Below are positions 31,295-33,612 of a stretch of 64,000 bases of DNA, one piece after another. Within the stretch, counting starts at the first letter, position 1, and every line of letters starts with the position of its first letter. The notes under the pieces were generated by a model. That model saw only the letters and a list, made by a program, of their open reading frames with translations. It was not told where the DNA came from and did no database searches. The DNA is from Staphylococcus phage Machias: the sequence record MW349128.1; one strand, 5' to 3'. The position numbers and the translations under genes were made by a program.

Positions 31295-32980
31295 TTGGAA
31301 GTGAATGGATTGAAAAATAAATACATTAGATGTAATTCTTGTAGCAAAGTTCAAGAATATAATGAAGATATTACATCTTGTTCTGAGTGTGGATCAGATA
31401 ATATCAGTGTAATTAAATCTCCTATTGATTTAGTGAATGAAACAGAAATATTAGTTACTGAATCAGAAATAGATTTTCTATTAAATTATAATGAAAATCA
31501 AAATCATGATAAAAAAGGAAATTCTTGTTGGTTTGATATTAGTTTAATTAAGTATTTTAATGATAATACACAAATTAGATTCATCGTTCTTCAAAATCAA
31601 AAGAGTAGAGAAGAAGATATATTAATAGATTATGCTGGGGATTATAAAGGTGGAAATCCTATTGTTATTAATGATACTGGCAGTATTAAAACTATTTTGA
31701 ATGATGTTGATAAACTTACGGAAGTTACCAAAATTAGATTTCTAAGTAAAGATTCAACTAAAAGAAAAGATTTCAGTGAATATTTAAATTCTGAAGAATA
31801 TGTGAGTTATAATAAAGATAAGTATAATTTCTATAATGATGCTAAGTTAAGAACCTTAGTAAAAGTTTTAGAATCTATGGGAAATGAAATTTTCTCAGAC
31901 TCTAAAGAAGATATTATATACAATAAAATATTTACAGAAAACAATGTACTCAATTCACCTTTATTCATAAATAAAGAAGTTTTGAGATATAACGAAACTG
32001 ACATCTATAAATTCTATGGAGACTATGAATTTGATAATAAATTAAATGATATAATTTATGATCATCAATTAGAAAATGAATTAGATGTTTTTAATTACCT
32101 ATATAATAAAACTAAAAATTCTAAACCTGTATTTACTGAAGATAAATCTGAAGAAGTCTATTACACAGTAACTCCTTCAATGATATTAGATGAAAACTTC
32201 TCTATTAAACCGGATCAAGGAAGAATAAATCCTAACCTATTATCTTTACTTTATTTTAAAATATTAGAAAAGAAATTAGGAATCAAATCAATAGAATTAA
32301 TTTCATATGTAGAACCATCTAAAAATAGAATAAAGCTTTTCCCTGTGTCATATAATGGACAAGGATATGTATTAGCAGACTTTAGTATTGATAGTCCAAT
32401 TATATTTGGTAATATGGAAGATATTAATAGATATAGTGCAGATAAATTTGGTTTCGATGAGAATGTTAAAGATAATGGAGAATTCAAATTTAGTGTTAAA
32501 GAAATTCCTGCTAACTTTGATTTCCAAAAAGCAATATCTAGTGATATAGAAATAATCGAAAGATTCTTTATGGAATTCAATGAAAATACTTTAAATGAAA
32601 CTATCCTAGAATCAGAATCAATCTTAAATGAAGCAGTAAGCGATAGTAAAAAGAAACGTCAGGAAATTCAAAATAAAATACTTGACGTTATATCTTCATT
32701 AGATAAAGATCAAAGTAATATGAGAAATTATAAATCTTTTTATGATGAAATGAATGATGAAGAATTTATGAGATATATTAAACGTTTCATAAATAGTGAT
32801 GAGAATTTCTATATAGAAGTTTTACCTAATAAATCTGAAGCTGATATTAATCAAATACAAGAAGCTTTAGACAAACTAGAAGTTCCTATGAATGAATTTG
32901 TTTATTATAGACATGATGGAAATAAAGAAGATCCATTAAGAACAAGATATAAAGTACCGGTTGGGTTAACTTATGTATGA
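31295..32980 (+). CDS. Hypothetical protein with an N-terminal C4 zinc ribbon; possibly exon 1 of an intron-interrupted gene
   Basis: CNSC...CSEC near the N-terminus. Its last ~9 codons overlap the 5' part of intron-core copy C, the same pattern seen at verified exon-intron junctions. Confidence 0.6.
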   Translation: MEVNGLKNKYIRCNSCSKVQEYNEDITSCSECGSDNISVIKSPIDLVNETEILVTESEIDFLLNYNENQNHDKKGNSCWFDISLIKYFNDNTQIRFIVLQNQKSREEDILIDYAGDYKGGNPIVINDTGSIKTILNDVDKLTEVTKIRFLSKDSTKRKDFSEYLNSEEYVSYNKDKYNFYNDAKLRTLVKVLESMGNEIFSDSKEDIIYNKIFTENNVLNSPLFINKEVLRYNETDIYKFYGDYEFDNKLNDIIYDHQLENELDVFNYLYNKTKNSKPVFTEDKSEEVYYTVTPSMILDENFSIKPDQGRINPNLLSLLYFKILEKKLGIKSIELISYVEPSKNRIKLFPVSYNGQGYVLADFSIDSPIIFGNMEDINRYSADKFGFDENVKDNGEFKFSVKEIPANFDFQKAISSDIEIIERFFMEFNENTLNETILESESILNEAVSDSKKKRQEIQNKILDVISSLDKDQSNMRNYKSFYDEMNDEEFMRYIKRFINSDENFYIEVLPNKSEADINQIQEALDKLEVPMNEFVYYRHDGNKEDPLRTRYKVPVGLTYV

Positions 32981-32997
32981 GCTCAATTAAAATCATA

Positions 32998-33081
32998 TTA
33001 ACTGCTGAAAAGACATTTAAAGTTGATCAGCATCAATTAAATTGTTCAACGACTAAATATATGACAAAGAAGATATAGTCT
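32998..33081 (+). repeat. Group I intron core copy C (variant, minimal P8)
   Basis: ATTAACTGCTGAAAA / GATCAGCATCA / GTTCAACGACTAAATAT / AAGATATAGTCT. Confidence 0.5.
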
Positions 33082-33183
33082 CATCTATAAAATGAATATA
33101 GTAAAGATAAATGACTTACATGTTAAGAGGTTAAATACTGTTGTAGCCTCCTTATACAGTAATGTATATGTAAAATTTTTTAA

Positions 33184-33291
33184 ATTGCTGGGAAAGTTTA
33201 TGAAACTAATCAGCATCTAATATTAAGTAAATAATCTTAATAAAGTTCAACGACTAAAATTAAAACTCCTAATAGGATGAATATATAGTCT
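33184..33291 (+). repeat. Group I intron core copy D (degenerate)
   Basis: AAATTGCTGGG / TAATCAGCATC / GTTCAACGACTAAAAT / ATATATAGTCT. Confidence 0.45.
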
Positions 33292-33447
33292 AAACACTAA
33301 ATAAAAATAGTGTATGAAATTATTGTACAACAGCTTCTTTCGAAAAAGAATGCATATAGTCTAGACGCTTCATCGAGATCAATGAAAACCGGTTTTAATG
33401 AAAAAATTTTGGCCGCTTATTATAGTAATATGATAATGATAATATTA

Positions 33448-33544
33448 TTAATTGCTGAGAAAATTAAAGTTAATCAGCATCAATCAAATTGATTGTTCAA
33501 CGACTAAATATAATGGTACTCATAAAGAGTATAAGATATAGTCT
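33448..33544 (+). repeat. Group I intron core copy E
   Basis: TTAATTGCTGAGA / TAATCAGCATCA / P6 CAATC..GATTG / GTTCAACGACTAAATAT / P8 GTACTC..GAGTA / AAGATATAGTCT. P9 with GAAA loop and AAUAACUG at 33555-33573. Confidence 0.55.
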
Positions 33545-33612
33545 GGCTTATATAGAAATATATAGGATAACTGCAACTCTCAGGTTCAGACAAAGTAGCA
33601 AGCGTATCAAAT

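Follow-up and report, generated by a model that had tools for sequence, protein, structure and literature searches.

The 64,000-nt stretch of the Staphylococcus phage Machias genome analysed here (sequence record MW349128.1; referred to below as the window) is Staphylococcus jumbo phage DNA. In a region of about 25% G+C in which all genes lie on the + strand, it contains two open reading frames (ORFs), one of 561 codons (31295-32980) and one of 86 codons beginning at ATG 33613, between which an initial annotation had placed three intron cores (copies C, D and E) within 600 nt. The evidence set out below supports reading 31295-33873 as one gene in four exons, which would encode the beta-subunit piece of an AR9-type virion RNA polymerase and be interrupted by three short group I introns. 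Joining exons 31295-32966, 33114-33131, 33326-33393 and 33574-33873 produces an in-frame ORF of 2058 nt (685 aa) that is colinear with the intronless gene of phage DC4 (L001:2517-4550, 677 aa), 540 of the 687 alignment columns being identical (79%). A second uninterrupted homologue is found in phage SA1 (L006:3017-5056). The initial annotation had suspected a gene in pieces, and the intact single-ORF homologues that this idea calls for do exist. At the nucleotide level, 31295-33873 is 96.5% identical to phage AH12 over its full length and 97.4% identical to PB50, and reaches 78-80% identity with LY01, DC4 and SA1 over the first two thirds. Across the junction region (window YKVPVGYLHVKRLQQLLSKKNAYSLDASSRSMKTGQLSGSDKV versus ...ASTRSMKTGQLTSSDKV in DC4) the spliced product agrees with DC4 and SA1 over all junctions (...KVPVGYLHVKRLQQLLSKKNAYSLDAS[S/T]RSMKTGQL...), the window peptide reading YKVPVG-YLHVKR-LQQLLSKKNAYSLDASSRSMKTG-QLSGSDKV and DC4 departing from it there by S/T and SG/TS only.

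The identity of the product follows from several comparisons. In the profile phrog_3233 ('RNA polymerase beta subunit'), residues 452-558 of the 561-aa ORF match positions 2-108 and the frame from 33574 (exon 4) matches positions 137-223; the gap of 28 positions between the two ORFs is filled by the 27 residues that exons 2 and 3 supply. The spliced product moreover aligns without a break to Escherichia coli and Xanthomonas RNA polymerase beta (query 482-648 on beta residues ~1160-1363; phmmer against PDB beta chains, E 1e-3 to 2e-3), over a region that takes in the motifs GY(L/M)..KL..L...K and ME..AL.A.G, GYMYMLKLNHLVDDK and GEMEVWALEAYGA, and the introns therefore lie in the most conserved part of the subunit. 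The match of exon 4 to Pfam Rpb2 domain 7 (Rpb2_7) is weak and sub-threshold. Relatives' records name the gene 'viral RNA polymerase beta subunit', and AR9 g078 is annotated as a virion RNA polymerase subunit; the label 'Zn-ribbon protein' that had been attached to the 561-aa ORF is best refined to a virion RNA polymerase beta-subunit piece, on the strength of phrog_3233 and the bacterial beta alignment. The N-terminal part of the gene carries a different label, 'hydrolase', in AR9/PBS1 records and in phrog_23439.

How is the coding sequence distributed over the locus? Exon 1 (31295-32966; ORF list and DC4 colinearity) has a putative TTG start at 31295 and ends in phase 1 (...GTT GGG T|); its last 8 nt, GGTTGGGT (32959-32966), pair with intron C as helix P1. 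The 561-aa ORF does enter copy C, as had been proposed, by 14 nt past 32966|32967, that is, by four sense codons and a stop; the earlier figure of about 9 codons had been counted from a nominal start at 32950. Exon 2 (33114-33131) is a micro-exon of 18 nt, AC TTA CAT GTT AAG AGG T, encoding (Y)LHVKR. This peptide is identical in DC4, SA1 and MarsHill, which have no intron there, and fits the bacterial beta motif GYMYMLKL, and the exon is 100% identical to that of AH12. Its bases 33115-33121 belong to helix P10 of intron C and 33127-33131 (GAGGT) to P1 of intron D, two pairings that do not overlap and lie 5 nt apart. Exon 3 (33326-33393) comprises 68 nt, TA CAA CAG ... ACC GGT = (L)QQLLSKKNAYSLDASSRSMKTG; its first 8 nt take part in P10 of intron D and its last 4 nt (CGGT) in P1 of intron E, and its peptide is unchanged in DC4, SA1 and MarsHill. 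The short ORFs at 33310-33698 had been dismissed as probably spurious, which does not hold for all of them: the ORF at 33310-33492 shares its frame with the real exon 3. Exon 4 (33574-33873; QLSGSDKVASVSNMEAS...DYDQEEE) is colinear with DC4 and ends with the stop codon TAA at 33871-33873. The frame of the 33613 ORF is open upstream to 33571, in agreement with the initial annotation, and 33574 is the first exon base after GATAACTG|; copies E and J do share the 3' end ATAACTG|. Upstream of ATG 33613 there is no Shine-Dalgarno-like sequence (TCAGACAAAGTAGCAAGCGTATCAAAT-ATG), another earlier observation that stands, and this ATG is an internal Met codon of exon 4 and no start. No terminator-like hairpin was found between 31295 and 33873, such hairpins occurring only outside the gene, at 31201-31234 and 33891-33921. 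The lack of a Shine-Dalgarno sequence at 33613 and the confinement of terminators to the outside both argue for a single transcription unit. In place of one interruption, or of the twintron-like arrangement allowed for earlier, there appear to be three independent introns, at three sites within 108 nt of the gene's most conserved coding region, separated by real exons of 18 and 68 nt that had been missed.

The group I character of the three copies is evident from their core strings. CAACGACTAAA occurs on the + strand at 33047, 33248 and 33498, and ATATAGTCT follows each occurrence by 26-38 nt, at 33073, 33283 and 33536; they correspond, respectively, to strands J6/7-P7 and J8/7-P7' of a group I intron, and the three cores reported initially are thereby reproduced. 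In the whole window CAACGACTAAA has 10 matches, all on the + strand, versus 0.88 expected (none of 100 shuffles reaches 10), and 10 copies keep both strings. A further occurrence of ATATAGTCT at 33354 was considered as a fourth core and rejected, being coding sequence of exon 3 (AAT GCA TAT AGT CTA GAC) that reads GCATACAGTTTAGAT in the intronless DC4. C, D and E all contain the strings UUCAACGACUAAA and A[A/U]GAUAUAGUCU (in D, AAUAUAUAGUCU), which fit the consensus columns of the Rfam family RF00028. To this family a local search matches D (33122-33312, 42.7 bits, E 2.8e-9), E (33386-33565, 35.9 bits, E 3.2e-7) and C (32957-33095, 26.5 bits, E 2.1e-4). A whole-window Rfam search at E <= 0.01 lists only copies F, I and J of the family, C, D and E being recovered by the local search only. 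All three introns possess the catalytic core, with P4-P6, the P3-P7 pseudoknot and the guanosine-binding P7 strands; all three upstream exons end in a U that pairs with a G of the guide, as the U·G pair of a group I 5' splice site requires; and each intron ends in omega-G (33113, 33325 and 33573) and has a P10. The splice junctions themselves are fixed independently of P1 pairing by the intronless genes of DC4 and SA1.

Intron C (32967-33113; 147 nt, + strand), whose boundaries were set by the DC4/SA1 alignment, is the most reduced of the three. It contains the P10 strand ATGTATGA (32973-32980), the guide GCTCAATT (32981-32988), P3 (32993-32998/33059-33064), P4 (33003-33008/33027-33032), P6 (33034-33044), P7 (33051-33055/33076-33080), P9 (33085-33101) and the terminal G 33113. 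Its P1, formed by exon GGUUGGGU and guide GCUCAAUU, has 8 bp with U·G at the 5' site, and its P10 is paired at 6 of 8 positions. P2 and P8 are absent, P3' being separated from J8/7 by a spacer of only 5 nt (CAAAG), and the same two helices are absent from all introns at this site (site 1) and at a further site, 2b, described below. Orthologues of intron C occupy the identical site in AH12, PB50, LY01 and Madawaska. Of the other 3' splice sites considered, G33093 and G33106 lead to stop codons and G33101 and G33122 to peptides unlike all homologues; only G33113 yields YLHVKR. P8-less cores with the same strings were also encountered in unrelated IMG/VR contigs, namely L018 and L118 (~1059, ~251, minus strand) and L062 (~3090, minus strand). 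In these, P3' runs directly into J8/7, and since they make up about 4 of 109 viral-contig cores, the form is not confined to Staphylococcus jumbo phages.

Intron D (33132-33325; 194 nt, + strand) has a fuller complement of helices: the P10 strand CTGTTGTA (33138-33145) and the guide GCCTC (33146-33150) are followed by P2 (33153-33168, GTAA loop), P3 (33178-33183/33260-33265), P4 (33186-33191/33210-33215), P5 (33195-33207), P6 (33221-33242), P7 (33252-33256/33286-33290), P8 (UCCU/AGGA, 33267-33277), P9 (33294-33313) and the terminal G 33325. Its P1 (GAGGU/GCCUC) has 5 bp with U·G at the 5' site, and its P10 (UACAACAG/CUGUUGUA) pairs with the first bases of exon 3 at 8 of 8 positions, with covariation in LY01. 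The minimum free energy (MFE) fold gives P1 and P4-P9 (z = -2.81; none of 200 shuffles is as stable). Its J8/7 reads AAUAUA, compared with AAAAUA in the LY01 intron at the same site (site 2) and A[A/U]GAUA in the remaining copies. Cleavage after G33316, immediately behind P9, was rejected as the 3' splice site, as it creates a TAA codon and lacks a P10; the 8-bp P10 and the sequence of the homologue both identify G33325 as the 3' end.

Intron E (33394-33573; 180 nt, + strand; site 3) comprises the P10 strand TTG (33409-33411), the guide GCCG (33412-33415), P2 (33417-33436, GTAA loop), P4 (33453-33458/33474-33479), P6 (33481-33495), P7 (33502-33506/33539-33543), P8 (UACUC/GAGUA, 33517-33531), P9 (33547-33566, GAAA loop) and the terminal G 33573. 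P1 (CGGU/GCCG) has 4 bp with U·G at the 5' site, P10 has 3 bp, and the MFE fold gives P1, P2, P4 and P6-P9 (z = -2.52). In MarsHill, PB50 and Bacillus phage AR9 the same insertion site holds a larger, endonuclease-carrying intron. Compared with this intron of ~1.3 kb (MarsHill L003 2215 to ~3540; PB50 L002 3600 to ~4918), E has in common the 5' ~45 nt (P1-P2 region) and the last 41 nt (AAGATATAGTCTGGCTTATATAGAAATATATAGGATAACTG), and its core is nearest to window copy B, which lies in gyrB (75%). With its ends resembling one intron and its core another, E looks like a recombinant or a deletion derivative that lacks the endonuclease gene. A 12-nt palindrome, AAAACCGGTTTT, at 33382-33399 is centred on the 5' splice site of E and could represent either a pairing that rivals the 4-bp P1 or the remnant of an endonuclease recognition site.

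To which subgroup might such short cores belong? C has 25 nt between P7 and P7', and D and E have 36-40 nt (range in the family, 25-40 nt), as against mostly 60-90 nt in the 109 viral-contig cores with the same core strings; a long P7-P8 insert, typical of related phage introns, is missing throughout the family. Introns of subgroup IA2, the usual type in phages, have extra helices, P7.1 and P7.2, between P3' and P8, for which the short P7-P7' distance leaves no room in C, D and E; MarsHill and AR9 do have the long P7-P8 version in their site-3 intron. The three introns studied here are best described as reduced relatives and not as canonical IA2 introns. At 205 nt, the Azoarcus pre-tRNA-Ile intron is often named as roughly the lower size limit for natural self-splicing group I introns. 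It too is built on a minimal plan, P2 and P9 being capped by GNRA loops, and keeps the L2-P8 contact. Intron C, by contrast, lacks P2 and P8 and is ~60 nt shorter. A literature source on the smallest known group I intron was sought and no usable one was found. It is conceivable, although on balance doubtful, that in intron C a natural group I ribozyme has been pared down to an unusually small size, substantially below the ~205 nt of Azoarcus. Introns of the C type (146-147 nt) are found at site 1 in the window phage, AH12, PB50, LY01 and Madawaska and at site 2b in Madawaska. If the proposal were true, the two partners of the L2-P8 tertiary contact would have been lost from them jointly, and the position of C beside a second intron across an 18-nt exon might impose an order of splicing.

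Conservation of the fold was assessed by anchor-based extraction of helices from 13 non-redundant members, namely nine window copies and the introns of this gene in LY01 and Madawaska. P2, mostly GNRA-capped, and P3-P9 are found in D, E and the other copies, each helix being kept by many differing sequences. In fixed register, 73 of 78 cells are paired in P3 and 49 of 52 in P6, and none of 5000 partner permutations reaches either value, counts that cannot be taken as true probabilities because the sequences are related. P4 and P7 are invariant and hence uninformative on covariation. When the best stem was sought without constraint, P2, P6, P8 and P9 beat shuffles in most copies; P3 is significant in the fixed register only. 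Apart from P2 and P8 in a subset, RNAalifold on MAFFT intron alignments recovers nothing but the invariant P4 and P7; it was replaced by anchor-based extraction and permutation because MAFFT mis-registers the variable hairpins and because of the P3-P7 pseudoknot.

Comparison among phages adds evidence of another kind, for the introns are polymorphic in presence, with 0 to 3 sites occupied across nine relatives. None is occupied in DC4 and SA1; MarsHill has site 3 (~1.3 kb, with an endonuclease gene) and so does AR9, in which sites 1 and 2 are empty (VPVGYITIKRVQQILSKK contiguous); LY01 has sites 1 and 2; Madawaska has site 1 and site 2b, 18 nt downstream of site 2; and AH12, PB50 and the window phage have sites 1, 2 and 3. 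Exon and intron strands change together at each site. At site 1, LY01 and Madawaska have GGA-U with GUUCAAC and the window has GGG-U with GCUCAA in P1; at site 2, P10 combines ...CAG with CUGUUGUA in the window and ...CAA with UUGUUGUA in LY01; and at site 3, P1 combines ACGGGU with GCCC in MarsHill and PB50 and ACCGGU with GCCG in the window. C and D had been suggested as possible non-functional relics because they look degenerate, and they do depart from the family consensus, C having neither P2 nor P8 and D a variant J8/7. Relic status itself finds no support, since versions of both are kept in several viable phages with compensatory changes.

These observations make it very probable that three independent introns are removed from one pre-mRNA by ordinary group I splicing, which would restore the polymerase subunit. 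Anatomy, junctions, conservation and covariation are all observed; splicing is inferred, its catalysis from the established group I mechanism, and this is a first reservation about the proposal. In outline, the gene at 31295-33873 would be transcribed as one pre-mRNA, in which each intron would fold into a group I core with the P3-P7 pseudoknot, P4-P6 and P9, supplemented by P2 and P8 in D and E. P1 would form between the guide and the end of the upstream exon, its U·G pair marking the cleavage site; free guanosine would attack the 5' splice site; and the 3'-OH of the freed exon would then attack after the terminal G of the intron, with P10 aligning the downstream exon. All three splices would be required for the 685-aa protein, and the 18-nt exon 2 would serve both as the 3' exon of C and as the 5' exon of D through non-overlapping bases. 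Further reservations concern the strength of the individual matches. All three RF00028 scores are under the gathering threshold of 50 bits, so that an Rfam gathering scan of the whole window returns nothing, a shortfall attributable to the missing peripheral helices and the AT-rich composition. P1, P3 and P5 are not individually above shuffles in the unconstrained best-stem test on this AT-rich sequence, and P5 is weak in several family copies. P1 of E has only 4 bp, and the covariation counts suffer from the relatedness noted above. The single-sequence fold of intron C is no stabler than shuffles (z = +0.33), and this together with the missing P2 and P8 makes its autonomy as a ribozyme uncertain.

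The last reservation leads to a variant in which the introns are spliced in vivo, with C, and perhaps D, needing the help of a protein from phage or host, of an RNA chaperone or of a fixed splicing order that the shared 18-nt exon would impose. We regard this as unlikely. In its favour, besides the poor fold statistics of C, every site-1 and site-2b intron lacks P2 and P8, the J8/7 of D and of its LY01 counterpart is unusual (AAUAUA and AAAAUA), and P10 of C and P1 of D are only 5 nt apart on exon 2. On the other hand, P1 of C is the longest of the family at 8 bp, its P3-P7 core and P9 are intact, unrelated viral contigs contain further cores that have these strings and no P8, and there is no sign of a cofactor; a need for help would in any case modify unaided splicing as an explanation and not exclude it. 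Very unlikely, by comparison, is a twintron or exon skipping, in which C, exon 2 and D, or the whole of 32967-33573, would be removed as a unit. Exons 1 and 3 would indeed join in frame (T + TA CAA...), and exon 2 is a mere 18 nt. Each intron has, however, its own P1 and P10 fitting its own flanking exons, the introns lie side by side with none nested, the residues that would be skipped are conserved in all homologues and in bacterial beta, and exon 1 joins exon 4 out of frame.

Could the locus instead go unspliced, with a split 561-aa protein, a separately translated 86-aa protein and copies that are inert intergenic repeats? The GenBank records of AH12, PB50 and LY01, which have two separate coding sequences (CDSs), would agree with this, and the beta and beta' subunits of jumbo phages are known to be encoded in pieces. 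Such an arrangement would nevertheless forfeit 27 conserved residues (YLHVKR...RSMKTG) that the stretches between the copies encode in frame and that purifying selection maintains, and would leave the 33613 ORF to be translated without a Shine-Dalgarno sequence. Given also that the intronless alleles are contiguous and that the guides covary with the exons, we consider the absence of splicing highly improbable. A decaying pseudogene with dead intron relics has the least to recommend it and is hardly credible: C and D do deviate from the family consensus, but the gene encodes a virion RNA polymerase subunit, the divergence of its exons is synonymous only, and AH12, PB50, LY01 and Madawaska, which have like arrays, were deposited as isolated phages with named hosts.

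If ordinary group I splicing of three separate introns is the preferred reading, how did the introns come to be there? The family matches 8-25 places per genome in five relatives (18-25 in each of AH12, LY01 and PB50), DC4 and SA1 not being among the records matched, and this abundance, combined with the patchy distribution, is why we infer that C, D and E are mobile now or were so recently. None of the three encodes an endonuclease, all being too short for such an ORF; the site-3 intron does carry one in PB50, MarsHill and AR9. Lacking an endonuclease of their own, they have probably spread by recombination between co-infecting phages, perhaps through co-conversion with the endonuclease-carrying site-3 intron or through occasional guide-directed reverse splicing. 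Site 2b of Madawaska (L007 3356-3501, after ...TTATTGAGT) is occupied by a C-type intron that is 86% identical to the site-1 intron of the same phage. The two differ mainly in P6, P9 and the guide; in both helices the changes are compensatory, and the guide GCUCAAU is a perfect complement of the new target AUUGAGU. It looks like the site-1 intron transposed within the same gene and, if so, would be a natural case of guide-directed group I intron transposition. In a separate observation, exon 3 is 13% divergent from AH12 (L004 3032-3099), differing at 9 of 68 nt, all 9 of them synonymous third positions, whereas exon 2 and the adjoining introns are 97-100% identical (the introns flanking exon 3 differ by only 2-3%). 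That every change is silent in the predicted frame supports translation of exon 3. This burst of silent changes suggests either a gene-conversion tract or selection on a homing-endonuclease target.

Interruption of this gene is not in itself new: annotations of Madawaska, MarsHill and AR9 already show it split by introns, and GenBank gives it 3 exons in Madawaska (MW349129), 2 in MarsHill (MW248466) and 3 in AR9 (g078). Intron-split RNA polymerase genes in the Madawaska/MarsHill clade were reported by Korn et al. (bioRxiv 10.1101/2020.12.14.422802), who predicted the mature products via AR9 alignment and describe the AR9 mature mRNAs as experimentally determined. Madawaska and MarsHill have the same gene and the compact intron family, Madawaska sharing the site-1 intron and MarsHill site 3. 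They differ from the window in that MarsHill has the ~1.3-kb endonuclease-carrying intron where the window has 180 nt and no endonuclease, and in that the window phage, like AH12 and PB50, has all three sites filled, while the second intron of Madawaska lies 18 nt downstream, at 2b. The homologous AR9 g078 has an intron at the same codon boundary as E (...MK[S/T]G|), but the AR9 introns are larger, with extra helices between P7 and P8, and one contains the homing endonuclease g079. Within the literature consulted, no description was found of the three-site array with its 18-nt exon, of the 147-nt form without P2 and P8 or of the exon-guide covariation. The Rfam screen in the DC4 paper gave no introns for that phage, in which the gene is uninterrupted.

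Other phages offer partial parallels. Twort orf142 reportedly has three self-splicing group I introns and so resembles the present locus in bearing several of them in one Staphylococcus phage gene, although this is another gene in a phage of another family. At ~250 nt and with full IA2 periphery, the Twort ribozymes contrast with the 147-194 nt of C, D and E. Multi-intron phage genes are also reported in the Bastillevirinae. In the jumbo phage PhiPA3, an RNA polymerase gene houses an intron-encoded homing endonuclease (Birkholz et al. 2024, PMC11620839); the two cases are alike in that a polymerase subunit gene of a jumbo phage harbours a group I intron of the mobile kind, and differ in that the PhiPA3 intron contains an active endonuclease and C, D and E contain none. 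By analogy, the PhiPA3 case provides a plausible selective rationale, competition between co-infecting phages.

What would follow for annotation and beyond? The 561-aa and 86-aa ORFs should be recorded as one 685-aa, four-exon gene, as should their counterparts in AH12 (OR455461), PB50 (OR770614) and LY01 (OR836606), where the exons stand as separate CDSs, named 'hypothetical protein' or 'viral RNA polymerase beta subunit', without introns. Because standard Rfam thresholds miss every intron of the family, automated pipelines will keep mis-annotating these genes. The locus would also be a dense example of the known preference of mobile introns for the most conserved part of essential phage genes, and would provide a set of very small natural group I ribozymes that can be tested as minimal catalysts.

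Members of the intron family, and other insertions, recur elsewhere in the window. An IStron-like element appears to lie within gyrB (17352-19075), with copy A as its ribozyme part: exon 1 (17352-17421, MTSTYSGSNIKHLEGLEAVRHRSD, ending CGGAT|) is followed by the group I core (17422 to ~17594), a TnpB ORF (17672-18877; Pfam matches OrfB_IS605 2.9e-14, Cas12f1-like TNB 3.2e-16 and HTH_OrfB_IS605 3.9e-12) and a G+C-richer stretch of ~195 nt (18880-19074), possibly a guide-RNA region, after which gyrB continues at 19075 (MYVGAIDG). In combining a group I intron with TnpB, this gyrB arrangement is reminiscent of clostridial IStrons (PMC3984707, PMC10690162). Five copies of the same family, F-J, interrupt a second RNA polymerase beta-like gene (47300-51354): copy F (48473-48643) and copy G with a 325-aa ORF (49274-50251), with H, I and J further on. 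Between G and H there appears to be an exon of only ~11 nt (AACCATCAGGT, 50329-50339); the F-J boundaries are provisional, having been drawn from P1 pairing and motif logic. An intein with a homing-endonuclease-like insert interrupts gyrA (27618-31172) and is also annotated in MarsHill, Madawaska and PB50. Finally, a repeated intergenic hairpin with the core GGTAATGA...TCATTACC is found after successive genes. It lies at 31201-31234, on the + strand just 5' of the polymerase gene, where it marks the end of the previous transcription unit; at 33891-33921, just 3' of exon 4 (GAGGTAATGACA...TGTCATTACCTC); and at 34640-34671. With GAGGTAATGACA ... TGTCATTACCTC in 2 of the 3 hairpin copies, and 3 terminator-like sites versus 0.5 expected, it behaves like a shared terminator element.

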